From Candidatus Vecturithrix sp. (GTDB taxonomy: Bacteria > Moduliflexota > Moduliflexia > Moduliflexales > Moduliflexaceae): 64,000 nucleotides of DNA. Of this stretch, positions 24,804-44,123 are shown piece by piece; position 1 is the stretch's first letter; each line of letters opens with the position of its first letter. The stretch spans positions 5,048,545 to 5,112,544 of the forward strand of contig JAXGYF010000001.1 in NCBI GenBank assembly GCA_040772385.1. Reading direction: 5' to 3'. Below the pieces are notes generated by a model. That model saw nothing but the letters and a program-made list of their open reading frames with translations, was not told the DNA's origin and did no database searches. A program made the translations under genes and the position numbers.

Positions 24804-25763
24804 ATGCAGAAAAAATTAGGGATAATCAGTGTATTCATGGTCTTGACTGTCACTCTTTTAGGTCTTGAAGGCGCGCTTGCCCAGGAAAAAATTTTGCTGG
24901 GCTTTTCACATGTCGCCATGAACTGCCCGTATTACCTGGCGATGGAACAGGCGGCAAAGGATACGGCGGCGGCTCGCGGCGCAGACATTATTGTATTGAA
25001 TGCGGAAGAAGATATTTCGAAACAAATCGCTGACATTAACAGTCTTTTTGTGAAGGGGATCAAAGGGTTGATCGTGAATTCCACGACAGAATACGGAACG
25101 ATGCCTGTGATTAAAATTGCGAATGGGATGGGGATTCCGGTTGTGGCAATTGATCGCCCGTTGTATGGCGATTATCTGGCGTATGTGGGAATCGATCAGT
25201 GGAAAGCCGGAGAATTACAAGGGGAATATATCACGAAAGAACTTTTGCCCGATGGCGGCAATATTGTGCTGATTATCGGCGACCCCGGATGCCCGGCCTC
25301 AATCGGTCGCGGAAACGGCATGAAGAGCATCCTGGATAAACCTGAAAACGCTGGTAAATATAAAATCCTGGCAACCTATAAAGCCAGTTACAACATGATG
25401 CTGGGGATGCAGAAGATGGAAGAAGCGATCGCGGCGTTTAAGGATGAAATTGATCTTGTGTATTGCGCGAATGATTCGATGGCCTTAGGGGCATTGGAAG
25501 CATTGCGTCAGGCTAAAATGACAGATGTGCTGGTATGTGGAGTTGATGGCCAGAAAGAAGCGTATGAAGAGATCCTTAAAGGCGACCAATATAAATCAAC
25601 CGTGATTAATAATCCGACGGAGATTACCATAAAAGCCGTCAATCTGTTGATAGATTATCTTGAAAAAGGCGAAGAACCAGCAGAACGCGATGTCATTACC
25701 GGAACAATTCTCGTGACGCCTGAGAATGTGAAAGAATACTACGATCAGAATTCGGTGTTCTAA
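24804..25763 (+). CDS. Sugar ABC transporter periplasmic binding protein (RbsB / Peripla_BP_4 family)
   Basis: A signal peptide precedes a ribose-binding-protein-like sequence. It is the first gene of a binding-protein, permease, ATPase, permease operon. Confidence 0.85.
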   Translation: MQKKLGIISVFMVLTVTLLGLEGALAQEKILLGFSHVAMNCPYYLAMEQAAKDTAAARGADIIVLNAEEDISKQIADINSLFVKGIKGLIVNSTTEYGTMPVIKIANGMGIPVVAIDRPLYGDYLAYVGIDQWKAGELQGEYITKELLPDGGNIVLIIGDPGCPASIGRGNGMKSILDKPENAGKYKILATYKASYNMMLGMQKMEEAIAAFKDEIDLVYCANDSMALGALEALRQAKMTDVLVCGVDGQKEAYEEILKGDQYKSTVINNPTEITIKAVNLLIDYLEKGEEPAERDVITGTILVTPENVKEYYDQNSVF

Positions 25764-25778
25764 GCGTATTGGCTTTCA

Positions 25779-25900
25779 TGAGAGAACCCGTTTAAGCTTT
25801 AGTAACTACTTCGCGTTGACGCAAAGGCTCCTTTGCGCTCCTGTTTCAGTTGTATACTTATTTACGAAATCATGTAGTAGTTACTTAAACGGGTTCTCTT
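25779..25900. other. Long intercistronic inverted repeat (~28-bp arms AGAGAACCCGTTTAAGCTTTAGTAACTACT / AGTAGTTACTTAAACGGGTTCTCT around a ~60-bp loop)
   Basis: A perfect long hairpin between the binding-protein and permease genes. It probably acts as an mRNA-stabilising or attenuating stem-loop. Confidence 0.6.
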
Positions 25901-25957
25901 TTCATTTTCGGTTGTTCTGCTTCTCACTTAGAAGTCTTGTAATCATGGGAGACGCCT

Positions 25958-26965
25958 ATGTCGCACAAAATCATTCCCATAATATCGAATTACGGCTTAT
26001 TTTTCATTTTACTTCTACTGATTATCTTTTCATCAATTCTGTCGCCGCTCTTTTTCTCGTACCTGAACATTACGAATTTACTCATCCAATCGAGCTTTAC
26101 CGGAATTTTGGCTATTGGAATGACATTTGTGATTCTCACCGCCGGCATCGATCTGTCCGTCGGAGCGATTGTCGGATTTTCTTCGATTCTGTTTGCGTCG
26201 TTGTTACATGGGGCGATCTTTACCTTCATGCCGGATACGATTTTTATATATGAGGGCGCTCCGAAATTAACCCCGGTCTTCCCCATGCCGTTCAATTTTG
26301 TGTTTGTGCTGTGTATTGGCGTATTGATTGGTTTTCTCAGCGGCTTGATGTCATATAAATTGGGCATCCATTCTTTTATTATCACCCTGGCGGTCATGAT
26401 TTTTACACGAGGATTGGCGATTTCTTACACTCACGGTCAACCGCTGTTTGGCATGCCTGAGTATATCAATTTTCTGGCGTATGGACAATTTCTGCGTATT
26501 CCGATGCCAGTGATTGTCTGGATTATTGCGTCGCTTTTTTCCTTTTTGCTCTTGAAGTACACACGTTTTGGGCGGGGAATTTATGCGGTCGGCGGCGGAG
26601 AGGAAGCCGCGCGGTTATCCGGGATCAATCCGGGACTGTACCGTATCTTTCCTTTCATGGCTTCGGGGTTTTTTGCAGCCCTGGTGGGTGTCATGATGTC
26701 GGGACGCATGGCCTGTGGGGACCCTAAAATTGCTGAAGGATGGGAATTAGATGCGATTGCGGCGGTGGTGATTGGCGGCACCAGTCTGTTTGGCGGCAGA
26801 GGCGGGATTGGAGAAACGGTGGTCGGCGTGCTGATCATGGGCTTGATTATTAATATGATGAATTTATTGGAAATTTCCGCCTATCCCCAACAAATGGTCA
26901 AGGGCGTCATTATCATTCTGGCCCTCGCCTCGCAAAATTTTATGATGAAGAGGAGCTATACATGA
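25958..26965 (+). CDS. Sugar ABC transporter permease (RbsC/BPD_transp_2 family)
   Basis: A polytopic membrane protein with a GIDLSVGAIVG motif. Confidence 0.85.
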   Translation: MSHKIIPIISNYGLFFILLLLIIFSSILSPLFFSYLNITNLLIQSSFTGILAIGMTFVILTAGIDLSVGAIVGFSSILFASLLHGAIFTFMPDTIFIYEGAPKLTPVFPMPFNFVFVLCIGVLIGFLSGLMSYKLGIHSFIITLAVMIFTRGLAISYTHGQPLFGMPEYINFLAYGQFLRIPMPVIVWIIASLFSFLLLKYTRFGRGIYAVGGGEEAARLSGINPGLYRIFPFMASGFFAALVGVMMSGRMACGDPKIAEGWELDAIAAVVIGGTSLFGGRGGIGETVVGVLIMGLIINMMNLLEISAYPQQMVKGVIIILALASQNFMMKRSYT

Positions 26966-28488
26966 GCCAACCGGGAGAATCCGAAACCTTATTATTAGAA
27001 GTGAAAAACATCGAAAAGACGTATCCGGGCGTGCGTGCGCTGGATAATGTGAATTTTGATGTGCGCCGCGGAGAAGTTCACTGCCTGGCTGGCGAAAACG
27101 GGGCCGGAAAATCCACGTTGATCGAAATTATCGGCGGCACGCATAAAGCGGATCAGGGCGCAATTTTACTTAATGGCGTTCCTGTCGAGTTTGCCAGCCC
27201 GAAGCATGCTCAGGAACATGGGATTGCTGTCTTACATCAGGAATTACCGGTGCTTCCCTATCTGACAGTCGCAGAAAATATTTTCCTCGCCCGGCAGCCG
27301 CGAACGAAATTGAAAACCGTGAATTATGCCGAGATGAACCGGCAGGCCAAACAGTGGTTGGATATGATCGCCGCTGATATTCATCCAAAAACCCTGTTAG
27401 GAAAGCTGCCAGTGGCAAAACAACAGATCGTGAGCATTGCTAAAGCTCTTTCCCTTGAAGCAAAGGTCATTATTCTAGATGAACCCTCGGCTGTGTTGAC
27501 CAATGTGGAACTGAAACGATTATTTGAAATTATTCAGGACTTAAAAAAAGAAGATCGCGGCATCGTGTATATTTCCCATCGTCTGGAAGAAATCTTCGAA
27601 ATCGGCGATCGTGTTACGGTGTTACGCAATGGGGGGCTGGTTGGGACCAAAGATATACGCGAGACCACCAAAGAATTGTTGATCAAAATGATGGTGGGCA
27701 AAGACATTGCTGAAAATGAATGGCTGGCGCATGAGACGGTGGTCAAATCTCGATTGCAGAAGAGTTTTTCCGTCAAAGGACTGACGCGCCAGGGCGTGCT
27801 TCAAAATATTTCTTTTGACGTGCATGCCGGAGAAATTCTCGGTATTTTCGGACTGGTCGGGTCAGGCCGAACGGAATTGGCCCGTGCGATTATCGGAGCA
27901 GACCCGCTTGACGCCGGGGAAATCTTTGTACAGCAGAAAAAGGTTCAGATTCGTTCCCCGAAAGAAGCCATTCGATCCGGAATTTGCCTGGCACCCGAAG
28001 ATCGCAAATCGCAAGGCTTATTGTTAGGAAAATCAGTGCAAGAAAATATCACGCTGCCCAATTTGAAAAAACTTAAAGGCATATTCATGCTGAGTTATAA
28101 CAAAATCACGGCATACGCCACTGACTTTGTCCGTAAACTGAATGTCGCCACTCCCTCAGTTCATCAAAAAGTCCGCTTGTTAAGCGGGGGCAACCAACAA
28201 AAAGTCGTTCTGGCCAAATGGCTTGGCATGAATTCACAGGTCTTTATTTTTGACGAACCCACCAGGGGCATTGATGTTGGCGCAAAAGAGGAAATTCGCA
28301 CTTTGATCCGGCAATTAGCGCAAGAAGGAAAGGCGATTATCCTGATCTCCTCGGAATTGCCTGAAATCATGAGTATGGGGGATCGGATCATCGTGATGCA
28401 CAAAGGCGCGGTTACCGGAGAGTTGTTGCGCGAACACGCGACCAAAGAAAAATTACTTGCCTATTCGATGGGGGTGACGCCAGCATGA
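26962..28488 (+). CDS. Sugar ABC transporter ATP-binding protein with duplicated nucleotide-binding domains (RbsA-like)
   Basis: Two Walker A motifs (GENGAGKST and GLVGSGRTE) and two ABC signatures (LSGGNQQK and one in the N-terminal domain). Confidence 0.9.
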   Translation: MSQPGESETLLLEVKNIEKTYPGVRALDNVNFDVRRGEVHCLAGENGAGKSTLIEIIGGTHKADQGAILLNGVPVEFASPKHAQEHGIAVLHQELPVLPYLTVAENIFLARQPRTKLKTVNYAEMNRQAKQWLDMIAADIHPKTLLGKLPVAKQQIVSIAKALSLEAKVIILDEPSAVLTNVELKRLFEIIQDLKKEDRGIVYISHRLEEIFEIGDRVTVLRNGGLVGTKDIRETTKELLIKMMVGKDIAENEWLAHETVVKSRLQKSFSVKGLTRQGVLQNISFDVHAGEILGIFGLVGSGRTELARAIIGADPLDAGEIFVQQKKVQIRSPKEAIRSGICLAPEDRKSQGLLLGKSVQENITLPNLKKLKGIFMLSYNKITAYATDFVRKLNVATPSVHQKVRLLSGGNQQKVVLAKWLGMNSQVFIFDEPTRGIDVGAKEEIRTLIRQLAQEGKAIILISSELPEIMSMGDRIIVMHKGAVTGELLREHATKEKLLAYSMGVTPA

Positions 28489-29486
28489 AGCACGCACGTA
28501 CCAGTCAGAAAAGTTATCGGCTTAGCTCTGTAAAAACCGCGCTCGGCCCTTATGTGGTGCTGATGCTCTTGATCATCATCGCCTCGATTCTTGCGCCCGG
28601 ATTTTTAACAGTGCAAAATGTGTTGAATTTACTCAGAAGTTTTTCCTTTCTCGGATTTATCAGTATTGGTATGACCTTTGTGATCCTCTCGGCCGGCATT
28701 GATTTATCCGTCGCTTCGGTTCTTGCGCTGTGTGGGGTCGTAACCGCTCTCCTCCAGCATTGGGGCATCTATTTAGGCTATACCGACGAGCTTTCCTTTA
28801 TCTATCCTGTGCCCTTGATTTTTTTTACTGTGCTCGTCATCGGCGCGGCGCTCGGCTTTATAAACGGACTGGTTATCGCAAAATTGAAAATTGCTGATTT
28901 TGCGGCGACTTTGGGTATGATGGTCTTTGCCAGAGGATTGGCATTTGCTATCAGCGGGGGGCGGACGATCTTTGGCGTGAGTGAAGCAACGCTCTTTATG
29001 GGACGGGGCACAATCGGAAACATCCCCTTTGTCGCACTTTTGTGGATTGCGGCGATTCTGATCAGCGGGTTTGTCCTGAAATACACAATTTTCGGAAAAA
29101 ACCTCTATGCCAGCGGAGAAAATCCTGAAGCAGCCAGACTGTCAGGAATCAATCCTGATTTTTATAAAATCGCAGTCTATACGATCTCCGGATTTTTGGC
29201 CGCCCTGGCCGGAATCTGCATGACCGGACGTTTGAACGTCGGCGAACCCCGAGTCGCACAGGGCTGGGAATTGGATGCGATTGCAGCGGTCGTGATTGGC
29301 GGCACATCTTTTGCCGGAGGAGAGGGAGGAATCGTCAAAACCATTGTCGGCGTTATGATTATCGCCTTGATCCGAAACATCCTGAGTTTACTCGGTATTC
29401 TGCCGGAACCTCAGCAGATGATCATGGGTGTTGTGTTGTTAGGGGCTGTGATCCTCCAACACTGGAGCGCCAAAAGAGAGGTATAA
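28485..29486 (+). CDS. Sugar ABC transporter permease (second RbsC-like subunit)
   Basis: Paralog of the 25958-26965 permease, with GIDLSVASVLA and GWELDAIAAVVIGGTS motifs. Confidence 0.85.
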   Translation: MKHARTSQKSYRLSSVKTALGPYVVLMLLIIIASILAPGFLTVQNVLNLLRSFSFLGFISIGMTFVILSAGIDLSVASVLALCGVVTALLQHWGIYLGYTDELSFIYPVPLIFFTVLVIGAALGFINGLVIAKLKIADFAATLGMMVFARGLAFAISGGRTIFGVSEATLFMGRGTIGNIPFVALLWIAAILISGFVLKYTIFGKNLYASGENPEAARLSGINPDFYKIAVYTISGFLAALAGICMTGRLNVGEPRVAQGWELDAIAAVVIGGTSFAGGEGGIVKTIVGVMIIALIRNILSLLGILPEPQQMIMGVVLLGAVILQHWSAKREV

Positions 29487-29494
29487 TATGAACT

Positions 29495-29560
29495 TCTATG
29501 CTCGTAGTTCGCGCTTTAGCGCGTTCTTCCGCCTGAAGGCGGAACTACGAACTCATCTAC
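29495..29560. repeat. Single copy of the repeat family C double-hairpin element
   Basis: CGTAGTTCGCGCTTTAGCGCGTTCTTCCGCCTGAAGGCGGAACTACG. Confidence 0.7.
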
Positions 29561-29587
29561 GCTAACTTACCAGGAACTCTATTCATT

Positions 29588-30355
29588 ATGAACACATACG
29601 ACACACAGAAAAGATTTACAGAAAAAGTGGCCATTATTACCGGAGCCGGACTGGGGATGGGACGCCAGACAGCGTTGGATATGGCAGCAGAAGGGGCTAA
29701 CATTGCTGCGGTTGATATTCTTGAAGACCATATTGGCTCGCTACAGCAAGAGATCGAAACAGGCGGCGGGCAATGCCTTGCCATCCGCTGTGATATTGCC
29801 GACCGGCAGCAAGTGGAGGCGATGGTCAAAAAAACCTTCAAAACTTTCGGGCGGATTGATATTCTGATTAACAACGCCGGGTTGCTGATTCCGGGTACAA
29901 TTGAGGAAACCACGGATGAATTGATTGATAAAACCCTGGCTATTAATGTCAAAGGCGTGTTATATGCCATCCGGGCCGTGACGCCGATTATGAAAGCCCA
30001 GAAATATGGCCGAATCGTGAATGTTGCTTCCATCACAGGGAAACGGGGAGATAACTCTACGATCTTTGTCTATGGCGCATCCAAAGGTGCGGTGATCTCG
30101 CTTACCCGTTCGACCGCCAGACAACTAGGGCCTTTTGGCATTACCTGCAACGCCATCGCGCCCCATGCTGTCATGACAGAGATGATGAAATATTGGGATG
30201 AAGACAAAAAAGCGCGCATGGCGGAATCCATCCCGCTCAAACGCCTGGGCACCGTCGCAGATATGTCCAATCTGATGAGGTTTCTGGCGTCCGATGAAGC
30301 CTCGTTTATTACCGGAGAAACGATAAATATTAACGGCGGTTATTATATGGATTGA
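29588..30355 (+). CDS. Short-chain dehydrogenase/reductase (SDR) family oxidoreductase
   Basis: TGAGLGMG cofactor-binding motif, NNAG, and the catalytic YGASK Tyr-x3-Lys. The protein is 255 aa. Confidence 0.85.
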   Translation: MNTYDTQKRFTEKVAIITGAGLGMGRQTALDMAAEGANIAAVDILEDHIGSLQQEIETGGGQCLAIRCDIADRQQVEAMVKKTFKTFGRIDILINNAGLLIPGTIEETTDELIDKTLAINVKGVLYAIRAVTPIMKAQKYGRIVNVASITGKRGDNSTIFVYGASKGAVISLTRSTARQLGPFGITCNAIAPHAVMTEMMKYWDEDKKARMAESIPLKRLGTVADMSNLMRFLASDEASFITGETININGGYYMD

Positions 30356-30401
30356 CAAATTTATGTTGTTCTTGATAGTGGTGAATTGTAGAAAAAACCG
30401 A

Positions 30402-30427
30402 GTTTTTTCAAAAAACTCGGTTTTTAA
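30402..30427. terminator. REP-type-1 hairpin AAAAACCGAGTTTTTTCAAAAAACTCGGTTTTT
   Basis: Palindrome after the SDR gene. Confidence 0.6.
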
Positions 30428-30457
30428 GAGAATACGCAACATCTACAAGGAGGAACT

Positions 30458-30769
30458 ATGGCAGAGAAAAATACAGAGGCATTAGGAATGATCGAAACGC
30501 GAGGGTTCGCCGCTATGGTGGAAGCTGCTGATGCAATGGTGAAAGCGGCAAAGGTGGACCTGGTGGGCTATGAAAAAATCGGCGGCGGCTATGTGACGGC
30601 TATTATCAGAGGCGATGTCGCGGCTGTGAGAGCCGCTGTTGACGCAGGAGCCCGCGCGGCCGAACGTGTCGGAGAAATCGTATCCACCCATGTTATTCCC
30701 CGGCCTCACGGTAATGTGGATTGTGCGCTGCCGCTTGGCCGCAAGCCTGAAGAAGGGAAAGAGTTATGA
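30458..30769 (+). CDS. BMC shell protein, BMC-H (PduA/EutM-like hexamer)
   Basis: Canonical BMC domain: [58 protein letters not shown]. Confidence 0.9.
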
Positions 30770-31398
30770 ATATTGACGTAAGAACCTATATTTTTTTAGA
30801 TTCATTGCAATTACAAATGGCCTCGTTTCTTGCGACGATTTCACGCGGCTATTATCCGGTGGCGGATCAGGCCTGCTGCATCATTGAAATCGCTCCTGGC
30901 ATTGAAATTAACCGCTTAACGGATATTGCCTTAAAAGCGACCAATGTTGCGCCCGGCTTGCAGGTGGTCGAACGCGCCTTTGGACTGCTGGAAGTTCATT
31001 CGGATGAACAAGGCGATGCGCGTCAGGCCGGCGAAGCTATTTTGCAAGAAATCGGGAAAACCGAAGCCGATCGTCTCAAACCGCGCATTTTGACCAGCCA
31101 ATTGATTCGCCATGTTACCGATCATCACGCTCAATTGATTAACCGGACGCGCTATGGCAACATGGTGCTGCGCGGCGACACCTTATATATTCTGGAAGTC
31201 GAACCCGCTGGCTACGCGTATTACGCCGCGAATGAAGCAGAAAAGGCGTCGCATATCAACATTATCAATGTCCAGGGGTTCGGAAAATACGGTCGTGTGT
31301 ATATTGCCGGTGACGAGGCTGAGGTGATTGAAAGTCAGACAATCGTCGAGGCTCGTTTAGAGGGCCTGACAGGTCGAACAGTTTCATCTTCTGATTAA
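30766..31398 (+). CDS. Probable tandem-BMC-domain shell protein (BMC-T)
   Basis: A 210-aa protein with two BMC-like halves ([22 protein letters not shown]... and [31 protein letters not shown]...). The call rests on manual pattern matching alone. Confidence 0.55.
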
Positions 31399-31409
31399 CA
31401 AGTGAGGAT

Positions 31410-31715
31410 ATGAACATGGCAGAACAACAGACAGATGCTTTAGGCATGATTGAGACCCGCGGATTTGCGGCCATGGTGGAAGCCGCTGATGCAATGGTCA
31501 AGGCCGCAAAAGTCGAACTGATTGGATATGAACAGATTGGCGGCGGTTATGTGACCGCCATCGTGCGCGGTGATGTGGCGGCCGTACGCGCTGCCGTTGA
31601 CGCTGGTGCGCGCGCGGCAGAACGGATCGGCGAAATCGTCTCAACGCATGTTATTCCACGGCCCCATACAAATGTGGACAACGCCCTGCCGCTCGGGCGC
31701 CAGGCGCAAGAATAA
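31410..31715 (+). CDS. BMC shell protein, BMC-H (second paralog)
   Basis: Near-identical core to the 30458 gene: [58 protein letters not shown]. Confidence 0.9.
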
Positions 31716-31744
31716 CAAGGCTTAAGCCTTGACATCAATGTCAA

Positions 31745-31835
31745 GGCTCAAAGCAAAAGCAGGCTAAAGCCAGCTAGAGTGCGCTTTAGCGTACTTCAGC
31801 TTTGAGCCTGGCGATTGATCGCCAGGCTTAAGTCT
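31745..31835. repeat. Repeat family A element (partial) plus a CTTAAGCCTTGACATCAATGTCAAGGCTCAAAG hairpin, inside the BMC operon
   Basis: Contains AAGCAGGCTAAAGCCAGCT...CTGGCGATTGATCGCCAGGC. Confidence 0.6.
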
Positions 31836-31847
31836 GAAAGGAAAACC

Positions 31848-32153
31848 ATGGTACTGGCACGTGTCGTAGGGACGGTCGTCTCAACGCATAAAAGCAAAAA
31901 AATTGAAGGGATCACATTTTTACTCCTGGAACACCTGGACCCATCTACCATGCAAGGGAAAAATAGTTACATCGTGGCCATGGATGCGGTTGGAGCAGGA
32001 ACAGGGGAAGTCGTGTTTTACGTTAGCGGGAGCAGCGCACGCATGACGCCCGTCACTGAAGGAAAACCGGCGGACGCCTCAATTATCGCTATTGTTGATA
32101 GCATTGAAAAAGACGGGCAGTATGTGTATCAGAAAGCCAGGGAGGAGCGATGA
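31848..32153 (+). CDS. BMC vertex protein, BMC-P (EutN/CcmL family), paralog 1
   Basis: MVLARVVGTVVSTHK... is typical of EutN_CcmL. Start is placed at the ATG with an AAGGAAAACC RBS. Confidence 0.85.
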   Translation: MVLARVVGTVVSTHKSKKIEGITFLLLEHLDPSTMQGKNSYIVAMDAVGAGTGEVVFYVSGSSARMTPVTEGKPADASIIAIVDSIEKDGQYVYQKAREER

Positions 32154-32437
32154 TTCTTGCAATGGTTGTGGGGACAGTTGTCAGCCGTGAACGCGCTGAT
32201 GGTCTCGAGGCCCCTACCTATCTCTTAGTCGAACGCTGCGATCAGCAAGGAACCGGCAAACGCGATTTTCTGGTCGCTCTGGATTTAATTGGGGCCGGAT
32301 ACGGGGAAGTTGTGCTCCTGAGTCAGGGCAGTGCGGCCCGTCAAACACCGACTACCGATGATCGCCCGATTGATGCAGCCATCGTCGGCCTTGTTGATCT
32401 GATCGATCAAGAAAACAAGGTACTCTACCGGAAATAG
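32150..32437 (+). CDS. BMC vertex protein, BMC-P, paralog 2
   Basis: MILAMVVGTVVSRER...ALDLIGAGYGEVVLLSQGSAAR. Confidence 0.85.
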   Translation: MILAMVVGTVVSRERADGLEAPTYLLVERCDQQGTGKRDFLVALDLIGAGYGEVVLLSQGSAARQTPTTDDRPIDAAIVGLVDLIDQENKVLYRK

Positions 32438-32490
32438 GCGTACCACACGCAGGAATGAACATTTCATTTATGTAGGAGAAGAAAAGGATT

Positions 32491-33912
32491 GTGGAAACGC
32501 TTGAACAAAATATTCGCGTTTTAGTTGAACAAGTCTTACAAGAGATCCATCCGCACAGTGTGCAATCCGAACCACCCTCTGAAAGCGGAATTGGGGTGTT
32601 TGCAGACATCAACAGCGCCATTGCTGCGGCTCGTATTGCCCACAACGAGTTGATGAAGCTGACGCTGGAAACCCGAAAAGCTCTCATTCAGAACATGCGA
32701 CAGACCATTCTGGATCACAATGAAGTGCTCTCAAAAAAGGCGGTCGAAGAAACAGGGCTGGGACGTTGGCAAAATAAACTCGCCAAGCACGAATTGGTCG
32801 CCCTGAAAACTCCGGGCGTGGAAGATCTGGAGCCGGTGTCATATACCGATGATCACGGCCTGACCCTGGTTGAACGCGCGCCTTATGGCGTCATCGGCGC
32901 GATTACGCCCAGTACGAACCCTTCTTCGAGCATTGTGAATAACAGCATCGGGATGATTGCGGCCGGAAATGCGGTCGTCTTCAATCCTCATCCTGCCGCC
33001 AAAACGATTTCAGCCATGACTATCTCTCTGCTAAACGAGGCGATTGTTCGGGCTGGCGGACCGCGTAACCTCCTTACGGCGATTGCAGCGCCAACTATTG
33101 AATCAGCGCAAGCCCTGATGAAACATCCCTATGTTGATTTGTTAGTGGTGACAGGCGGACCGGCGGTGGTGCGCGTGGCGATGAACAGCGGCAAAAAAGT
33201 CATTGCCGCGGGGCCGGGGAATCCGCCCTGCGTGGTGGATGAAACCGCAGATATCGAGAAAGCCGGCAAAGATATTGTGGATGGGGCCAGTTTCGACAAT
33301 AACATTGTGTGTATCTGTGAAAAAGAAGTATTGGTCGTAGCCTCGGTTGCCGACCGCTTAAAAACCGTGATGAAAATGCACGGCGCGTATGAACTGAATG
33401 AAGAGCAGATCGCGCAGATCACGAAATTAGTGATTGCTGAGCCTGGCGGTCCGGGCAGAGAAGGTGTTCCAAATAAAAAATATGTTGGCAAAACCCCAGA
33501 ATATATTGCAAAAGAGATCGGATTAAAGATTCCTGAGTCTATAAAACTCCTGCTGTGTGAAGTCGGACGCGAACATCCGCTGGTCTGGACCGAACAACTC
33601 ATGCCCGTCTTACCGCTTGTCCGCATGAGAAGCGTTGATGACGCCATTGAGTTAGCGGTTGAGTGCGAACATGGATTCCGGCATACCGCAATCATGCACT
33701 CCCTGAACATTAAAAAACTCTCGAGAATGGCGCGGATGATGAATTGTTCAATCTTTGTCAAAAACGGTCCCTGTTATGCAGGTCTGGGGCATGGCGGGGC
33801 TGGATTTACCTCGTTTACCATTGCCAGCCCCACGGGCGAAGGCTTAACCCGCGCTCGCACCTTTACGCGCGAACGACGCTGTACGCTGGTTGATTATTTT
33901 CGAATTGTCTGA
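32491..33912 (+). CDS. CoA-acylating aldehyde dehydrogenase (PduP/EutE-like) with an N-terminal encapsulation-peptide-like amphipathic helix
   Basis: The N-terminus LEQNIRVLVEQVLQEI is followed by an ALDH fold with a catalytic Cys in NNIVCICEKEV. Its position among shell genes supports the call. Confidence 0.85.
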   Translation: METLEQNIRVLVEQVLQEIHPHSVQSEPPSESGIGVFADINSAIAAARIAHNELMKLTLETRKALIQNMRQTILDHNEVLSKKAVEETGLGRWQNKLAKHELVALKTPGVEDLEPVSYTDDHGLTLVERAPYGVIGAITPSTNPSSSIVNNSIGMIAAGNAVVFNPHPAAKTISAMTISLLNEAIVRAGGPRNLLTAIAAPTIESAQALMKHPYVDLLVVTGGPAVVRVAMNSGKKVIAAGPGNPPCVVDETADIEKAGKDIVDGASFDNNIVCICEKEVLVVASVADRLKTVMKMHGAYELNEEQIAQITKLVIAEPGGPGREGVPNKKYVGKTPEYIAKEIGLKIPESIKLLLCEVGREHPLVWTEQLMPVLPLVRMRSVDDAIELAVECEHGFRHTAIMHSLNIKKLSRMARMMNCSIFVKNGPCYAGLGHGGAGFTSFTIASPTGEGLTRARTFTRERRCTLVDYFRIV

Positions 33913-33974
33913 ATAGAACACAGATTAGACTGATTGATCAGTCTCATCAGTCCAATCAGTGTTCTATTCCCCCT

Positions 33975-34253
33975 ATGAAATTAGGAAAAGTGATCGGACG
34001 AGTGGTCTGCACTCAAAAGTTAGAATATTTTGACGGCCTGAAATTGCTGCTGGTGCAGCCGCTCGATGAACAGCAGCGCGCCGCCGGCGATGCCCTGGTT
34101 GCGGTTGATACGGTTCAAGCCGGCGAGCAGGATCTGGTATTTTATGAAACCAGCAAAGAAGCCGGCTGGGCTTTGCCGGCATGGTACACCCCGGCTGATG
34201 CTGCCATTATGGGTATTATCGATCACCTGGAAGCAGGAGGAACGCCGTCATGA
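33975..34253 (+). CDS. BMC vertex protein, BMC-P, paralog 3
   Basis: MKLGKVIGRVVCTQK...AVDTVQAGEQDLVFY. Confidence 0.85.
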   Translation: MKLGKVIGRVVCTQKLEYFDGLKLLLVQPLDEQQRAAGDALVAVDTVQAGEQDLVFYETSKEAGWALPAWYTPADAAIMGIIDHLEAGGTPS

Positions 34254-34519
34254 TCCTGGGAAAAGTCGTTGGCAATGTGGTATCAACCGTCAAATGTCCT
34301 GATTATGATGGGTATAAATTACTGATTGTCCAGCCTGTTGATCCTGCCGGAGCGCCCAGCGGCAAGTCTCTGCTGGCGGTGGATGCCGCGCAGGCCGGCA
34401 TTGGGGATACGGTGCTGGTGATTGATGAAGGCGGCTCTGGCAGAGCCGTTTTGGAGGCTTCTGACAAACGCACGATCCGCACTGTCATTGCTGGCATTGT
34501 GGATGAAGTGTCTGTTTGA
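34250..34519 (+). CDS. BMC vertex protein, BMC-P, paralog 4
   Basis: MILGKVVGNVVSTVK...AVDAAQAGIGDTVLV. Confidence 0.85.
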   Translation: MILGKVVGNVVSTVKCPDYDGYKLLIVQPVDPAGAPSGKSLLAVDAAQAGIGDTVLVIDEGGSGRAVLEASDKRTIRTVIAGIVDEVSV

Positions 34520-35142
34520 ATATCATGGCAGAACAATCTCTTGAAAAACTTGTTGAAAATATTGTCAGAGAAATGTTGACCCGACAGGCGTCAGCCTCCT
34601 CTGATCCTGCGTCGTCTCAAGCAGAGGTGTCCCAGGCCAAAACGGTGAACGAGAAAGACCAGGTGCGGCGCGTGGCGATTGGCTCGGATCATGGTGGATT
34701 TGAGGCCAAAGAAACGCTGAAGATCTATTTACAGGGCCTGGGGTATCAGATCATGGATGTGGGCACGTATTCCAAAGAGAGCGTTGATTACCCTGATATT
34801 GCCGTGAAAGTCGCCCGGAAAGTTACCAGCGGCGATTGTGAGCGCGGCATTATGATTGACGGCGCGGGCATCGGATCGTCCATGGTGTGCAACAAAGTGT
34901 GCGGCATCCGCGCGGCCTTGTGTTATGATCTGCGCACGGTGGTCAACAGCCGGGAACATAACAACGCCAATGTCTTAACCTTAGGCGGCCCGCTGCACAG
35001 CGCGGATCAATTGTGCGAAATGGCAAAGGTCTGGCTGGAAACCAGATTTGGCGGAGGAAGACACTGGCCCAGAATCAATAAGATGATGGCTATTGAACGA
35101 AGGGAACGCCCTTACGAGGAACGAAAACATGGATCAGAATGA
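34516..35142 (+). CDS. rpiB: Ribose-5-phosphate isomerase B (RpiB/LacAB family) with a ~60-aa N-terminal extension (amphipathic helix plus Ser/Ala-rich linker)
   Basis: Core [14 protein letters not shown]...[26 protein letters not shown] matches RpiB. The extension [28 protein letters not shown] looks like an encapsulation peptide. Confidence 0.8.
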
Positions 35143-35917
35143 ACTCATTGAAAAAATTACCAAAGAAGTGATGCAACGTTTACAGGCCGAACTCAGCCGG
35201 CAGGGGATGGGAACCGCCGTGCCGGCGGCCGGCGGCGTTCAGCTTTCAGCGGCTGAACTGGCAAAATATATTGATCACACCCTCTTAAAACCGGATGCCC
35301 TGCAAGGTGCGATTGATAAGGTTTGTGAAGAGGCGATTCAATATAAATTCAAATCCGTCTGCGTCAATTCAACCTGGGTGCCTTATGTGGCGAAAAAGCT
35401 GCAACGTACCGGCGTGCTGGTGTGCTCGGTGGTCGGATTTCCATTGGGCGCGATGGAGAGCCGCGCGAAAGCTTTTGAGACGCGTCAGGCGATTGAAAAC
35501 GGCGCGCGGGAGATTGACATGGTCATCAATGTCGGCGCGTTAAAATCCGGAGATTTGAAAACCGTGGAAGAAGACATTCGCGCCGTGCGGCGGGCTACGC
35601 GCGGCACCACCATTCTGAAAGTGATTCTTGAAACCTGCCTGTTGAAGGATGAGGGAAAAGTGATTGCCTGCGAGCTTGCCAAAAAAGTCGGCGCAGATTT
35701 TGTGAAAACCAGTACCGGATTTGCCGGCGGCGGTGCGACCGTGGAAGATGTGACCTTAATGCGGCGGGTTGTCGGCCCGAATATCGGCGTCAAAGCCAGC
35801 GGCGGTGTGCGCGACTACGAGACAGCTATTGCCATGATTGCCGCCGGCGCGACCCGGCTCGGCACGTCGTCCGGCGTCGCCATTGTCACCGGCGCACAGG
35901 GGAAAGGCGCGTATTAA
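35129..35917 (+). CDS. deoC: Deoxyribose-phosphate aldolase (DERA) with an N-terminal encapsulation-peptide-like extension
   Basis: The DeoC core ([25 protein letters not shown], Schiff-base Lys in DFVKTSTGF) is preceded by [19 protein letters not shown]. Start is placed at the ATG with a GAGGAA RBS; the ORF track gives a longer 35093 start. Confidence 0.85.
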
Positions 35918-36021
35918 GGGCGTATTAAGTCCGCCCAGCCATCAATCGCCAGGAGACCGGGTACACGAGGTTGTCCTTCAAGTTATCCCTCCCCCTGTCA
36001 GCGCAGGGAGTTTATGTCCCT

Positions 36022-37008
36022 TTATTTATCGAGCGGACTCTTGACCGCGAGTGCGCCTGTTTGCATGACATGCGTGTAGATCATGGTGGTTGATACCTCT
36101 TCATGTCCGAGTAACTCCTGGACGATATGGATGTCATAGCCGTCTTCCAGCAGATGCGTGGCAAAACTGTGGCGGAACGCATGGCAGGTGACGCGTTTGG
36201 AAAGACCTGCGGCGCGGGCAGCCTGTTTGACAGCGCGCTGGAATCCTTCCCCGCTGGCATGATCGCGATAGGCCTTTCCGGATTGGGGATCGGTCGAAAG
36301 GGTTGCTGAGGGAAATACGTATTGCCAGATCCAGGCGGTTTCGGCGTGAGGATATTTTCGGGCCAGAGCAAAGGGCAAAGGCGTCCTGCCATGGCCAGCT
36401 TTCAGGTCATCTTCATGTAAGCGTTTGACCCTGGCAAGGTGATGCTGCAAAGGTTCTTGTAACACATCCGGCAGCATAGTGCGTCGGTCTTTCATCCCTT
36501 TACCGGAGCGGACGGTGATCTCACGCCGGGCAAAATCGAGGTCCTTGATGCGTAAGCACAGACATTCCATCATACGCAAACCGCTGCCATACAGCACCTG
36601 AGCCATGAGTTGATAGGTGCTTGAAAGCTGGTTGAGCACCCGTTGCACCTCTTCTCTGGTCAAGACGGTCGGAATATAGCTGGACTCTTTGGCTCGCTGA
36701 ACATGAATTTTGCCGGGCAGATCGATATTCAGGACTTTGCGATAGAGCAGAATGAGCGCGCAGAGCGCCTGACGCTGGGTCGTCGCCGTGACATGGCGTT
36801 TTACAGCTAAATGAGTGAGAAAGGCCTCGATCTCTGTTGTCCTCATCGTTGCCGGATGACGATAGCCATGAAAGCGTAGATATTGACGAATCCAGTCGAG
36901 ATACACTTCCTCCGTCCGCGGCGAATAGTGCTTGAAACGTATGGTTTTCCGGACTTGATCCAGCAGTTTGTTCAGTTCATCTGTTGATAACGTTCGTGTG
37001 CGATTCAT
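36022..37008 (-). CDS. intI: Integron integrase (IntI, tyrosine recombinase with the integron-specific additional domain)
   Basis: The IntI-specific insertion [24 protein letters not shown] aligns, by recall, to IntI1 [20 protein letters not shown]. Catalytic motifs [39 protein letters not shown] and a C-terminal AVKSPLD are present. Confidence 0.85.
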
Positions 37009-37269: not shown

Positions 37270-38253
37270 TCAGCCTCTCCCATCCAGCGGACTTTTTATT
37301 TGTTGTCCGATCTTGTTCAACACATGCGAATAGATCATTGTGGTTTCCACATCCTTATGGCCTAACAGTTCCTGGACTGTTCGGATATCATAGCCGTCTT
37401 CCAGGAGATGCGTGGCAAAGCTGTGGCGCAGGGTACGACAATCGGCCGGTTTTGTGACCCCGGCAATATTTGCTGCTTCCTTGACCGCGCGTTGGAGCGT
37501 TGACTCATCGAGATGATGTCGCCGGGTTATGCCTGAGCGGGGATCCGCAGAGAGCTTACTGGCCGGGAAGACATATTGCCAGTTCCAATTTTTGTTGTCC
37601 GATTGATATTGCTGGGCCAGAATTGGCGGCAGGTAGACCGTGCCGCAGCCTTGCTTCAGATCGTATTCATGCAAAGCTCTGTCATAGCTCAGTTGCAACT
37701 TGATCAGCGGTTCCAGGCTGTGAGGCAGCACGGTGACATGATCTTCGTGTCCCTCGATGGTTCGTACCTGAATCTGGCTCTGCTTGAAATTCAGGTCATT
37801 CACGCGAAGTCGGAGACATTCCAGTACCTGGAGCCCGGCGCCATAGAGGAGGCGAATTGGAAGCTGATAGGCCGGAACGACCGCATTCAGGATGCGGTAC
37901 ACCTCATCTTTGGAGAGGATGTTTGGGAGATGCTGAGGGCATTTAGCGTACAAACGGTTGAGGTGTTCGGCGGTCTCTTCCATCTGAAGCACCTCGCGAT
38001 ACAAAAAACTCAGGGCACTCAGGGCTTGATTTTGGGTTGAGGCAGCCACGCCATCGTTGGCGGCCAGGTGAGTTAGAAAGGTCTTCACTTCTGCCACGCC
38101 CATATTTTGCGGATGCCGCTTCTCATGAAACAGAATAAAGCGTCGAATCCACTGAATGTAGGTCTTTTCGGTCCGTTTGGCGTACTCCAGCGTTTGGAGG
38201 AGATCGCTGACCTGATCAAGCAATTTTTTTTGCTGAGGCGGGTGGAGTGCCAT
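37270..38253 (-). CDS. intI: Integron integrase (second IntI paralog, tandem with the first)
   Basis: Carries the same additional domain ([25 protein letters not shown]) and catalytic region ([37 protein letters not shown]...IKSPLDG). The ORF track extends to 38322; the Met at 38253 gives a typical IntI length. Confidence 0.8.
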
Positions 38254-38473
38254 GGTATTCTTTCCCCCTACATCAAGGTTCTTTAGTAGAATTTCACCAG
38301 GACATGCCTTTTTGCTTGACAAAAATTGAAAAAACCCGAAGATTTTTTTACACCTGCATAACTACAAGAACAGAGGAATACGTAAGAATTTTCAGTGGAG
38401 ATGTTTTTGTCAAGTATTTTCTTCCGGGAAACTCTCTTTTCGTGTATGAACGCGAGGGGGGGGCATCAGAGTG

Positions 38474-38849
38474 TATGAAAACCCGATCGACATTGAAGCG
38501 AGGGCAACGAGGCACGCTCAAACTGGCTCAGCACTATGGCGACCAGTTATTATATGTGCGGTACCGGTATGATCCGGTTCGGAAGAAACGTTTAAAAACC
38601 GTTGAACTGATTATTGAGGAAACTGATTGGGAGCCTGCTGAACAGTTTGCGCCGGATCAGATTGTTGGGGTTCAGGTTGCCATGGAAGAGACCGCTCTTC
38701 AGAAAGCGATTAGAAAGGCCGGAGGGGTCTGGAACCGACGTCGGAAAGTGTGGGAGGTTCGATACGATCGAGTGTGTGAGTTAGATTTGGAAACTCGAAT
38801 GGTTGCCGAAGTTGAAGAGATGTATGCAGCGGTGCAGGGGGTTGAGTAG
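38474..38849 (+). CDS. Hypothetical protein, first ORF downstream of the intI upstream region (possible cassette)
   Basis: An ORF with no recognisable domains. The start at the MKTRSTLKRGQRG Met is inferred, and the track ORF begins earlier at 38247. Confidence 0.3.
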
Positions 38850-38924: not shown

Positions 38925-39100
38925 GAAATGTTTCGTATATACGAAACAAGTTTATTATATGCGAAACATGTTGCGTATATAATAAACCGGAGCACATGGC
39001 TGGCGGAAAAGTTTCGTATATACGTAACTTTTTTTGTGTCGTATATACGTAACAAATTTCGTATATACGTAACATGTTACGTATATACGAAACGGTTTCG
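38925..39100. repeat. Array of ~6 copies of a perfect 16-bp palindrome TTTCGTATATACGAAA (variants GTTACGTATATACGTAAC, TGTCGTATATACGTAAC) within ~180 bp
   Basis: Copies at about 38931, 38962 (degenerate), 39011, 39037, 39056 and 39077, with irregular 5-15-bp spacing, lying immediately left of the IS91-like element end. Confidence 0.8.
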
Positions 39101-39266
39101 GCCGCAAGTACGCAGCCTAATTCCTGTTGAACAAAGCCGCAGGGCGGCAGAAGAGTTTCGTGCTCCTCCCCACCATTTTTCTCTTGCCATGATCTGAACA
39201 GGTGTCATCCTCCTCCATGATGTATTCATCCTGCGTATGAACCTCATTCATCATGGAGGAGATACG

Positions 39267-40133
39267 ATGACCGCTCTGAGACACCGTTTCATTGAAGACC
39301 TGCAATTGCAGGGGAAGTCCGACCGGACGCAACAGGCCTACGTCCGCGCCGTGCGGATGCTGGCCGACCACTTCCACACCCCGCCGGATCAGCTCACCGA
39401 CGAGCAGATTCGGCAGTATTTCCTGTACGTCAAGAACACTCGACACTGGTCGTTTTCGACCATGAAACAGGCCCTGTGCGCTATCAAGACCTTGTATACG
39501 CAGACGCTGCACCGGGACTGGGGCATTCTGGACGTGATTCGTCCGCCGACATCGCAGACGCTGCCCGATGTCCTGACCCACGACGAGGTGCAGCGGCTGC
39601 TTCAGGCGGTGCGTCTGCCGCACTATCGGCTGTGCTTGACCACGATCTACTCGTGCGGATTACGCCTGACCGAAGGCGCCCAACTCCGGGTCACGGACAT
39701 TGACAGTGCCCGGATGCTCGTGCATGTGCGCCACGGGAAAGGGGACAAAGACCGCTATGTGCCGTTACCCCAACGTACCCTGGAGCTGCTGCGCCAGTAT
39801 TGGCTGACGCACCGCCATCCGGTGTGGCTGTTTCCGGCTGGCGGCGCTGGGCCGGTGCAGCGCCAGCCTGCTTCCGCCCCTCTCTCCGTCAGCACGCTGC
39901 AAAAAGCCTGTCGTCTCGCGAAGCAGGAGGCCGGGATCACCAAAACCGTCTCGGTCCACAGTCTGCGCCATGCCTATGCCACCCATCTGCTGGAAGCCGG
40001 CGTGAGCCTGCGCATGATTCAAGCCTATCTCGGACATACCTCTCCCCAGACCACGGCTCGTTACACGCATCTGACCTCCCAGGCGCAGACCAGCGCGGGC
40101 GTCGTCATTGACACCCTGATGCAGGATCTCTAA
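39267..40133 (+). CDS. Tyrosine recombinase (phage-integrase family) encoded upstream of the IS91-family transposase
   Basis: C-terminal catalytic region HSLRHAYATHLLEAGVSLRMIQAYLGHTSPQTTARYTHL. Such upstream recombinase genes occur in a subset of IS91-family members. Confidence 0.8.
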   Translation: MTALRHRFIEDLQLQGKSDRTQQAYVRAVRMLADHFHTPPDQLTDEQIRQYFLYVKNTRHWSFSTMKQALCAIKTLYTQTLHRDWGILDVIRPPTSQTLPDVLTHDEVQRLLQAVRLPHYRLCLTTIYSCGLRLTEGAQLRVTDIDSARMLVHVRHGKGDKDRYVPLPQRTLELLRQYWLTHRHPVWLFPAGGAGPVQRQPASAPLSVSTLQKACRLAKQEAGITKTVSVHSLRHAYATHLLEAGVSLRMIQAYLGHTSPQTTARYTHLTSQAQTSAGVVIDTLMQDL

Positions 40134-40154
40134 GCCCCTCATCGGAGGCCCGAG

Positions 40155-41291
40155 ATGCTGGAATTGGCTGACATCTTCCAGGCCTACGGTCCCGCGTATG
40201 AGGCGAAATACGGCGACCGCATGCCGCCCAGCCATCACGACGCGCTGTGGGACATCGCCCACTGCCGCACGCCCCTGATGGGGGGCGAGGTGTTCTGGTG
40301 TGCCCAGTGCCAGGACTTTGTCTACAGTTATCATTCCTGCGGCAACCGCCATTGTCCCAAATGCGGCGGTGACCGGGCCGACGCCTGGCGCGACGCCCAA
40401 CTCAAGAAGCTGCTCCCCGTGCCGTATTTTCTCGTGACGTTCACTCTGCCCCATTCCCTCAACGCCATCGCCCGTTCCCATCAACACGTGATCGATGACC
40501 TGCTCTTCAAAACGTCCGCGGATGCACTCCACACGCTCGCCTTGAATCCGGAGTGGCTCGGCGGCACGATTGGCATGGTGGGCGTCCTCCACACCTGGGA
40601 TCGGGCGATGGGCTATCACGTGCATGTCCATTATCTTGTGCCGGCCGGGGGGATCGATCCGGGCACCGGGGCCTGGATCCCCTCCCATCCGAAATTTCTC
40701 GTGCCCGCCTCGGCCCTGCGCGAGGTCTTCCGGGCCAAATTTCGCGACGCCCTGTACGCCGCCGATTCAGCCCTCTTCGCCCAGGTCCCGCCGGAGACCT
40801 GGAGCAAACAGTGGGTCGTGCACTGCAAGGCCGTCGGAGACGGACGCACGGCCCTGAAATACCTGGCCCCCTACGTCGCCCGCGTGGCCCTCTCGAATCG
40901 GCGACTGGTGACACTCGATGAGGGACAGGTCACGTTCCGCTATAAGCCCCACACGAGGCCCTGGACGACCATGACGCTCGACGTGATGAGCTTCATGCAG
41001 CGCTTCTTACAACACGTCCTGCCCAAAGGCTTCCAGAAAATCCGGTACACCGGCTTCCTGCACCCCAACGCCCGCACCATGTTCACGGCCCTACAAGCGC
41101 AGCTCGTCGCAGAGGCCGCCTCCGAGCGTCTGCCAGAGGTGCTGGCCGCCACGTTCGGCCTGGAGATCGGCAACGGGACGCCCAACGACGACCCGCCTGA
41201 CGACCCCCCGCGCGGTTGTCCGCACTGCGGTGGTCCGCTGGCCTTCGTCGGTCGCTTCCCTCGCGCCCCCCATCGACGAGGTCCTCCATGA
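40155..41291 (+). CDS. IS91-family transposase (N-terminal Zn-binding domain plus Y2 HUH transposase domain)
   Basis: CxxC...CxxC zinc-binding region (WCAQCQD...CGNRHCPKCG), an HUH-like HVHVHYLVP, and the catalytic Tyr region KYLAPYVARVALSNRRL. Confidence 0.8.
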   Translation: MLELADIFQAYGPAYEAKYGDRMPPSHHDALWDIAHCRTPLMGGEVFWCAQCQDFVYSYHSCGNRHCPKCGGDRADAWRDAQLKKLLPVPYFLVTFTLPHSLNAIARSHQHVIDDLLFKTSADALHTLALNPEWLGGTIGMVGVLHTWDRAMGYHVHVHYLVPAGGIDPGTGAWIPSHPKFLVPASALREVFRAKFRDALYAADSALFAQVPPETWSKQWVVHCKAVGDGRTALKYLAPYVARVALSNRRLVTLDEGQVTFRYKPHTRPWTTMTLDVMSFMQRFLQHVLPKGFQKIRYTGFLHPNARTMFTALQAQLVAEAASERLPEVLAATFGLEIGNGTPNDDPPDDPPRGCPHCGGPLAFVGRFPRAPHRRGPP

Positions 41292-44114: not shown

Positions 44115-44123
44115 GGAGTATGT

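Follow-up and report, generated by a model that had tools for sequence, protein, structure and literature searches.

A probable SPU2-type microcompartment locus in Candidatus Vecturithrix

We analysed a stretch of 64,000 nt from Candidatus Vecturithrix sp. (GCA_040772385.1, contig JAXGYF010000001.1, positions 5,048,545-5,112,544), referred to here as the window, with a focus on the bacterial microcompartment (BMC) locus at 30458-35917. This locus very probably encodes an intact sugar-phosphate-utilising (SPU) metabolosome of the SPU2 subtype, a relative of those of the KSB3/Modulibacteria lineage. Genes were identified from the list of open reading frames (ORFs) between 24 and 40 kb and from Pfam and NCBIfam profile scans. 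Ten genes were found in the locus, every ORF being intact and on the + strand: two encode hexameric shell proteins (BMC-H), one a CcmP-like double-stacking trimer, BMC-T(dp) or Tdp, four pentamers (BMC-P, P1 to P4 in gene order), and the remaining three an aldehyde dehydrogenase (AldDH), an RpiB-family protein (ribose-5-phosphate isomerase family, RPI) and a deoxyribose-phosphate aldolase (DERA, DeoC). An initial annotation, made from the letters of this DNA, had proposed two BMC-H genes, a tandem-domain shell gene, four pentamer genes and three cargo genes, all of which are present.

The SPU2 assignment is made because the domains, the core order, the nearest catalogued loci and the published description of the subtype all agree; it is carried by the gene identities, the catalytic motifs, the tags with their conservation and the synteny with catalogued SPU2 loci, as read from sequence. 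Related loci were collected by an AldDH-based scan with one genome per species, which yielded 80 loci (with labels such as L002). The best AldDH matches were found in UASB270 (Candidatus Vecturithrix, 81%), in two Candidatus Moduliflexus metagenome-assembled genomes (MAGs) and UASB14 (78%), and in a KSB3 MAG (71%), followed at 64-73% by Spirochaetota, Bacteroidota, Atribacterota and one Victivallales MAG. L001 is a short contig that stems from an independent run; it encodes an AldDH identical to that of the window, together with the shell genes upstream of it. Mapping of the window proteins revealed that the core order H-Tdp-H-P1-P2-(PduS-like)-(BMC-Ts)-AldDH-P3-P4-RPI-DERA is shared by about 80 loci, which belong to five phyla or more. 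The published catalogue counts 53 SPU2 loci, in Bacteroidetes, Spirochaetes, Atribacteria, Moduliflexus flocculans, KSB3 and Vecturithrix (Sutter 2021, Supplementary Data 2, PMC8217296), and its description of the shell comprises a BMC-P triplet (grey, orange, green), an additional green-clade gene, a BMC-Ts and a BMC-T(dp) of the CcmP-like kind (PMC8217296). The window locus departs from this description only in having no BMC-Ts and in its linkage to a sugar ABC transporter, a short-chain dehydrogenase/reductase (SDR) and a DeoR regulator. The SPU class had been recognized in the initial annotation and is narrowed to SPU2 by the catalogue comparison; the remark that this class is poorly characterised is out of date, given the studies of 2021 (PMC8217296) and 2024 (PMC11585597). 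The locus is thus one more example of SPU2, relatives from the filamentous KSB3/Modulibacteria of anaerobic reactors having already been catalogued.

Candidatus Vecturithrix granuli UASB270 and Candidatus Moduliflexus flocculans UASB14 have the same gene set and order as the window, with Tdp proteins 85-86% and P1-P4 proteins 64-82% identical. Like the window, they lack PduL and BMC-Ts in the locus, carry SDR and sugar-transporter genes upstream and show the same N-terminal motifs on their cargo. They differ from it in having one BMC-H in the compared DNA instead of two, a zinc-dependent alcohol dehydrogenase (Zn-ADH) upstream, and a GntR or SMP-30 lactonase gene downstream in place of the integron-type integrase (intI) genes of the window; their transporters are probably not orthologous to that of the window, because the identity is 33-43%. 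SPU2 loci from Bacteroidota, Spirochaetota and Atribacterota, that of Bacteroidetes GWA2_32_17 (L079) among them, share with the window the four BMC-P orthogroups, the CcmP-like Tdp, a tagged AldDH, an RPI with Asp66 and the DERA helix ELIxKITxEVMxRL, whereas they differ in carrying BMC-Ts, in some cases PduS-like, triose-phosphate isomerase (TIM) and PduL genes, and, in Bacteroidota, regulators of the TetR rather than the DeoR family. In one Candidatus Moduliflexus MAG (L003, 8595-9988), genes for a TrmO-like methyltransferase and an Mrr restriction endonuclease lie between BMC-P2 and AldDH.

Shell proteins and the four pentamer orthogroups

The two BMC-H genes, at 30458-30769 (PF00936, 1.3e-32; KAAK and PRPH interface motifs) and 31416-31715 (ORF from 31410; PF00936, 1e-32), encode proteins that are 87% identical to each other. 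Between them, at 30766-31398, lies the gene for the tandem-domain shell protein (PF00936, 2.4e-5), which scored 272 bits on the NCBIfam CcmP model, below the model cutoff of 340, and which matched the solved structures 5v76 (236 bits) and CcmP 5lsr/4ht5 (232 bits). Its Glu69-Arg70 stands at the position that we take to be the gating pair of CcmP. In the tree files of the catalogue, its orthologues U27_02021 and U14_01672 appear as "Tdp_petrol2 ccmPlike, SPU2".

The four BMC-P genes are located at 31848-32153 (P1; longer ORF from 31815; PF03319, 8.6e-25), 32150-32437 (P2; 4.5e-24), 33975-34253 (P3; 3.5e-25) and 34250-34519 (P4; 5.5e-23). Judging by the genes called on Logan contig L001, which is near-identical, the most likely starts are 31848 for P1 and 31416 for the second BMC-H. 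Classification of the shell proteins with PF00936 and PF03319, the check proposed in the initial annotation, thus returned two PF00936 BMC-H and four PF03319 genes within 4 kb. The four pentamers are distinct paralogues with pairwise identities of 29-46%. Only P2 could be placed in a BMC-P clade, by orthology: in the catalogue tree its orthologues (95 aa; UASB270 and UASB14) are labelled as green-clade P_kermit_spu2like, while P1, P3 and P4 are known by positional orthology. The positional orthologues in related loci are 57-82% (P1), 48-78% (P3) and 50-75% (P4) identical to the window proteins.

A set of four BMC-P had been considered unusual in the initial annotation, which is so only against the average of 1.7 over all BMC types. 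Among the 61 related loci with a complete stretch between Tdp and DERA, the number of BMC-P is exactly four in 58, and the best matches of these are P1, P2, P3 and P4 in that order; two others have five, owing to a duplicated shell module, and one has three. Four is therefore the rule for SPU2, and the pentamers represent four old orthogroups rather than a peculiarity of the window locus. In the two loci with five, the Bacteroidales SPU2 loci L048 and L054, a tandem shell module reads H-Tdp-H-P1-P2 and then H-Tdp-(H)-P1.

Cargo enzymes and their N-terminal extensions

The cargo genes encode a CoA-acylating AldDH (32491-33912; PF00171; NCBIfam PRK15398, 679 bits), the RPI protein (34516-35142, likely start ATG 34525; PF02502, 1e-49) and DERA (35129-35917, longest ORF from TTG 35093; PF01791; TIGR00126, 288 bits, cutoff 117), the signature enzyme, which is found only in SPU loci. 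AldDH aligned to the BMC AldDH structures 5jfl and 4c3s from residue 31-33 and has kept the cysteine motif FDNNxxCxxEKE. DERA aligned to the solved 8qps with 291 bits from residue 43, counted from the start at 35129, which leaves a 42-residue extension. Its motifs DMVIN, VKTSTGF and VKASGG are conserved relative to 8qps, DMVIN and VKASGG being identical; we take these motifs, as established knowledge, to hold Asp102, the Schiff-base Lys167 and Lys201.

The catalytic domain begins at residue ~33-38 in AldDH, at 52-53 in the RpiB-family protein and at residue 55 of the ORF in DeoC, so that all three proteins carry an N-terminal extension. The DERA extension opens with a near-invariant ELI(D/E)KIT(K/R)EV(M/L)x(R/K)L, found in 65 of 69 related ORFs, whose hydrophobic residues at positions 2, 3, 6, 10, 11 and 14 follow a helical repeat. 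The helix is followed by a variable linker with a median of ~21 residues across related loci and of ~20 aa in the window copy. The conservation of this helix motif indicates that the true DERA start is the ATG at 35129 (MDQNELIEK...) and not the TTG at 35093. Across related loci, the AldDH N-termini share the motif (L/T)ExxIRxLVxxV(V/L). The RPI protein has an N-terminal encapsulation peptide and a linker of ~30 aa, a tag that is also present in the loci of the KSB3 lineage, Spirochaetota, Atribacterota and Victivallales and absent in Bacteroidota. The linkers of the extensions are rich in Pro, Ser, Ala and Gly.

Amphipathicity was assessed by comparing the peak hydrophobic moment of each extension with those of 2000 shuffles. 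In each of the three extensions the peak falls on the conserved motif. The RPI peak of 0.74 was equalled in only 4 of 2000 shuffles and is clearly significant, and the SDR used as a control was not significant (859 of 2000). Since the shuffle test was convincing only for RPI, we regard the conservation of the helix pattern across phyla as the stronger argument for the tags. The extensions that the initial annotation had described on AldDH, RpiB and DeoC are accordingly borne out by the domain starts and by the motifs conserved across phyla. The loss of amphipathicity that would have spoken against them was not seen, given the coincidence of peaks and motifs and the significant RPI value, although AldDH and DERA gave weak values, considered below. 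The three proteins with their helix-plus-linker tags are expected to reside inside the shell.

According to the catalogue, every SPU2 AldDh has an encapsulation peptide, as do roughly half of the aldolases and one third of the RPIs (PMC8217296); the lack of an RPI tag in Bacteroidota fits this last fraction. In four Bacteroidota SPU2 loci, RPI and DERA occur as a single ORF (L029, 12068-13342; L032, 4048-5325; L034, 12070-13347; L035, 12067-13341), in the order RPI, tag helix, linker, DERA. RPI-DERA fusions have been published for SPU3.

The RPI-like protein

Alignment of the RPI protein to Clostridium thermocellum RpiB (3ph3) showed that the catalytic CGTG is replaced by DGAG. Residues are given here in E. 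coli numbering, for which we assumed the reference sequence from general knowledge; it is consistent with the 3ph3 alignment. Cys66 is replaced by Asp in the window copy and in 65 of 65 relatives, and Thr68 by Ala in the window copy and 64 of 65. Asp9, His10, His99, Asn100, Arg133, His134 and Arg137 are kept in ~64 of 65 relatives.

The Asp substitution is present in all SPU RPIs (Dwyer, Sutter and Kerfeld 2024, PMC11585597). The RPI homologue from SPU6 showed negligible isomerase activity on ribose 5-phosphate (R5P) and formed a ~1:1 complex with its DERA, which was active, and the authors suggest that RPI may serve in core packaging (PMC11585597). The two substitutions were initially considered as a new observation, which was dropped because the Asp change has already been published together with activity data (PMC11585597). 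By analogy with SPU6, the RPI-like protein probably partners DERA or serves in packaging instead of isomerising R5P. The name ribose-5-phosphate isomerase B, given in the initial annotation, holds for the family (PF02502); with the catalytic Cys66 replaced by Asp and an SPU6 homologue of negligible activity, it is to be read as family membership and not as function.

Regulator, transporter and SDR upstream of the core

A DeoR-family regulator gene (23715-24542, - strand; Pfam DeoRC, 9.7e-44, and HTH_DeoR) is divergent from the transporter and BMC genes, and its product is the probable regulator of the locus. From 24804 to 35917, 16 genes are co-oriented on the + strand with short gaps. They begin with a CUT2-type sugar ABC transporter, which consists of a binding protein (24804-25763; Pfam Peripla_BP_4), a permease (25958-26965; BPD_transp_2), a double-domain ATPase (26962-28488; ABC_tran twice) and a second permease (28485-29486; BPD_transp_2), and continue with the SDR (29588-30355; adh_short_C2, 1.2e-62). 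The binding protein scored 143 bits on the RbsB model, far under the cutoff of 337, and is RbsB-like only. Since the SDR has no extension resembling an encapsulation peptide, its Rossmann motif starting at residue ~13, it is probably cytosolic.

DeoR orthologues, 52-71% identical, adjoin the SPU2 cores of L040, L049, L051, L055, L067 and L069, all from Spirochaetota and Atribacterota. Analogous sugar ABC transporters flank the cores in L002, L019 and L051 (33-48% identity), and SDR genes adjoin them in L002, L004, L019, L031 and L050 (~30-34%). The earlier suggestion that DeoR, the transporter and the SDR belong to the system is thus plausible, given the co-orientation, the DeoR orthologues and the analogous flanks. 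The three probably form its cytosolic side, and the co-oriented genes are a putative operon. The linkage of DeoR and a sugar ABC transporter to the core offers a practical handle for induction experiments.

Scans for promoters and terminators over 23.5-39.3 kb gave counts that were not above those of shuffles (24 vs 18 each); a TTGACA-16-GATAGT site (30352-30379) and a stem-loop (35993-36021) count as candidates only. At 9166-12096 of the window (- strand), genes for Dak1 and Dak2 subunits flank a PNP_UDP_1 nucleoside phosphorylase gene (10315-11019, - strand), which is the only nucleoside-catabolic gene of the window and lies ~20 kb upstream of the BMC locus.

Recycling enzymes and the end of the locus

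A tblastn search of the 64-kb window with proteins from related loci gave no match to PduL, PduS/RnfC-like proteins, BMC-Ts, TIM or Zn-ADH, and neither PF06130 nor PF00465 was detected in Pfam scans of the larger window ORFs, in agreement with the initial annotation, which had reported no PduL or alcohol dehydrogenase (ADH) gene in the window. Such genes are infrequent in the related loci as well: PduL is found in 4 of 80, all from Atribacterota and with the gene 3' of DERA (PF06130 was confirmed in L040), TIM in 4 of 80 and a PduS/RnfC-like flavoprotein in 11 of 80. The published SPU2 enzymes are only AldDh, PF01791 and PF02502, few loci having TIM, a phosphotransacylase (PTAC) or ADH (PMC8217296). 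A BMC-T(dp), which offers acetyl-CoA a possible exit, is typical of those SPU subtypes that have no PTAC (PMC11585597).

In those related loci that extend past DERA, DERA is the last core gene. It is followed by a GntR gene in UASB270 (L002), by an SMP-30 lactonase gene in UASB14 (L004) and in a spirochaete (L019), and by a TetR gene in 10 Bacteroidota loci. The intI genes of the window therefore lie beyond the point at which such loci normally end, and the locus is not truncated by them.

Comparison with other microcompartments

The SPU6 BMC of a Chloroflexi bacterium, the sole SPU system with biochemistry (PMC11585597), resembles the window locus in its signature enzyme, an N-terminally extended DERA, its RPI with Asp66, its AldDH and BMC-T(dp), and its lack of PTAC (PMC11585597). 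It differs in that the AldDH tag is C-terminal and the AldDH falls near EUT3 in the tree, in a Tdp of a different clade and in a BMC-P triplet as against four. The Tdp of the window is closest to 5v76 (236 bits) and 5v74 (221 bits), structures from the BMC of Haliangium ochraceum (HO), whose shell serves as a structural model system; HO loci likewise have multiple BMC-P and an AldDH related to SPU types, but the main HO locus contains neither DERA nor RPI. The EUT and PDU systems follow the same logic, with a signature enzyme that generates an aldehyde, an encapsulated AldDH of the EutE/PduP family and targeting by an amphipathic N-terminal helix. In these systems CoA is recycled by PduL or EutD and NAD+ by ADH inside the shell, enzymes that the window locus lacks, and there is usually one BMC-P and no BMC-T(dp), where the window has four BMC-P and a BMC-T(dp).

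Proposed function and alternative readings

These comparisons suggest a scheme in which, going by what is known of the protein families, the two near-identical BMC-H would tile the facets of the shell, the CcmP-like BMC-T(dp) would form a large gated pore and the four BMC-P orthogroups would provide the vertex pentamers. Deoxyribose 5-phosphate (dR5P), presumably derived from DNA, would enter the shell, where tagged DERA would release glyceraldehyde 3-phosphate and acetaldehyde, and tagged AldDH would convert acetaldehyde, CoA and NAD+ to acetyl-CoA and NADH. The tagged RPI-like protein may bind DERA and help to pack the core. Because the window has no PduL, ADH, PduS or BMC-Ts, cofactors must exchange with the cytosol, and acetyl-CoA, CoA, NAD+ and NADH would cross the shell, probably via the BMC-T(dp) pore. 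The scheme builds on the gene content of this locus and on the biochemistry of SPU6, from which we infer which substrate is used, how cofactors travel and what the transporter does.

Several observations weigh against an SPU2 metabolosome that works in this way. The tags of two of the three enzymes gave weak hydrophobic moments in the shuffle test (AldDH, 0.54, reached in 150 of 2000 shuffles; DERA, 0.58, 223 of 2000), and the single-sequence AlphaFold2 model of DERA, in which residues 3-24 form a helix and the stretch after them is disordered, is of low confidence (mean predicted local distance difference test score, 48). The linkage of the transporter and the SDR to the core is analogous and not orthologous, given identities of 30-48% to the copies beside other cores. 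Neither a deoxyribokinase nor a phosphopentomutase gene was found near the locus and, with no such kinase or mutase nearby and the phosphorylase ~20 kb away, a route from the transporter substrate to dR5P is not visible. The activity of DERA and the DERA-RPI complex were demonstrated in another subtype, with the SPU6 homologue (PMC11585597). Finally, the BMC-Ts of the SPU2 description had no match in the tblastn search of the window. PduT-like BMC-Ts genes were found in 70 of the 80 related loci, between P2 and AldDH, and were likewise absent from the compared DNA of all five relatives of the KSB3 lineage (L002-L005 and L013) and of three further loci, from Bacteroidota (Paludibacter-type). 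The absence of BMC-Ts from the window thus looks like a lineage variant within SPU2 and not like grounds for exclusion. With three tagged proteins and neither BMC-Ts nor internal cofactor recycling, the architecture makes a minimal SPU2 example, and it sharpens two questions about the SPU class, namely why four BMC-P orthogroups are maintained across at least five phyla and what the Asp-type RPI does.

One alternative, which we consider unlikely, is that the organelle handles a sugar phosphate other than dR5P derived from DNA, such as an imported sugar modified by the SDR. RPI would then be a true isomerase that prepares the aldolase substrate or removes its product, and Zn-ADH and lactonase would act in relatives. 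Sugar ABC transporters, SDRs, Zn-ADH and SMP-30 lactonase do recur beside SPU2 cores of the KSB3 lineage and Spirochaetota, yet these flanking genes are only weakly similar between lineages and the Bacteroidota SPU2 loci do without them. The phosphate- and sugar-binding residues of RPI other than Cys66 and Thr68 are kept in ~64 of 65 relatives, which argues for retained ligand binding, and activity on rare sugar phosphates is left open by Dwyer et al. (PMC11585597); in the same study, however, the SPU6 DERA was active on dR5P and its RPI partner inactive on R5P (PMC11585597). The aldolase itself points to dR5P, with 288 bits on the deoC equivalog, 291 bits against a solved DERA and conserved catalytic motifs. 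It seems to us no more probable that the KSB3 lineage has a stripped-down SPU2, lacking BMC-Ts, PduS, PTAC and ADH and tied firmly to a sugar ABC importer and an SDR, in which cofactors pass solely through the CcmP-like trimer, the substrate is an imported sugar derivative and RPI is a working isomerase.

The two remaining alternatives concern the integrity of the locus. According to the initial annotation, the intI genes cut the locus off; an integron inserted 3' of DeoC would then have removed PduL and ADH. Two integron-type integrase genes do begin 105 bp past the DeoC stop, the window is without PduL or ADH, and none of the 80 related loci has intI genes next to DERA. In the relatives, however, DeoC is terminal as well and is followed by unrelated, lineage-specific genes; PduL is confined to the four Atribacterota loci, PTAC and ADH are normally absent from SPU2 according to the catalogue (PMC8217296), and neither attC sites nor a cassette array was detected. 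Truncation by the integrases is thus very unlikely, and it was rejected after comparison of the 80 related loci. Less credible still is a decaying or non-functional remnant beside a mobile, defence-rich region. In its favour, the DNA next to the locus is compositionally mosaic and contains two IS91-family units, genes for STAND NTPases and an intI with a degenerate catalytic site, and the locus is missing the BMC-Ts that 70 of 80 relatives possess. Yet none of its ten ORFs is disrupted, and the motifs for catalysis and for shell interfaces are conserved, as are the tags; both BMC-H, Tdp, P1, P2 and AldDH were recovered at 97-100% identity from an independent run (L001); and the layout without BMC-Ts is common to the relatives of the KSB3 lineage, which indicates a stable lineage variant. 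An intact SPU2 metabolosome acting on dR5P is therefore the reading that we retain.

Integrase genes and the mobile region downstream

The two integron-type integrase genes, at 36022-37008 and 37270-38322 (both on the - strand), scored 440 and 406 bits on TIGR02249 (cutoff 265) and are 47% identical to each other. Both proteins align over their full length to VchIntIA (2a3v), including the IntI-specific insertion WxYxFPS...DP. Catalytic residues were scored as R-K-H-R-H-Y relative to VchIntIA. All six are kept in the product of 36022-37008, whereas three are lost in its paralogue, where the Arg of GLRxxE is replaced by Gln, GKGGKNR by IEGHEDH and the His of HxxR by Arg (RTLR); judging from these losses, the paralogue is probably inactive. 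A search of the region for direct and inverted repeats revealed no attC-like elements, and with a stem-loop heuristic for RYYYAAC...GTTRRRY (unvalidated, run at two thresholds) no site turned up close to the intI genes and the counts did not exceed those of shuffles. Instead of cassettes, the intI genes have IS91-family units and large STAND NTPase genes as neighbours. The BMC locus had been said to abut an integron: the two intI genes are real, but one is degenerate and no attC or cassette array was detected. What the BMC locus borders is a mobile, defence-rich region, and the term integron overstates the evidence.

A 200-aa ORF without annotation (38247-38849) lies between the intI genes and a block at 38930-39093 in which seven copies of the 18-bp palindrome GTTTCGTATATACG(A/T)AAC, mostly at 20-bp spacing, stand to the left of the first IS91-family unit. 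This palindrome gave 14 strand-matches against 0.02 expected and occurs nowhere else in the window; the block looks like a multi-site array for protein binding, a putative assignment. The IS91-family units, two stretches of ~2.5 kb at 39125-41658 and 52274-54813, are 87-89% identical, have a GC content of ~0.60 and each carry a gene for a tyrosine recombinase (298 and 301 aa) and, after it, one for an IS91/Y2-family transposase (378 aa). Genes of low GC content (0.33-0.38) are located between and after them, at 41709-47389, 51142-52341 and 56074-58835. Their products include an EAD8-NACHT/NB-ARC-TPR STAND NTPase (801 aa), a cold-shock-domain protein, further NACHT/nSTAND/AAA proteins and a protein of 651 aa whose AMP-binding and Pol-beta nucleotidyltransferase matches are weak. 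In their composition these genes contrast sharply with the BMC locus, whose GC content is ~0.52, and they look like a mobile defence island.

Other genes of the window

At 4107-7710 (- strand), a glycyl-radical enzyme resembling pyruvate formate-lyase (PFL-like, 804 aa) and a radical-SAM activase are encoded beside a GH4 glycosidase and a DUF4432 protein. Since no shell genes are nearby, this locus is not a microcompartment of the GRM type. A lactate-utilisation cluster at 15232-22192 encodes a lactate permease, EtfB, EtfA, an FAD-linked oxidase and the lactate racemase LarA, and is preceded by a sigma-54 two-component system at 12093-14957.

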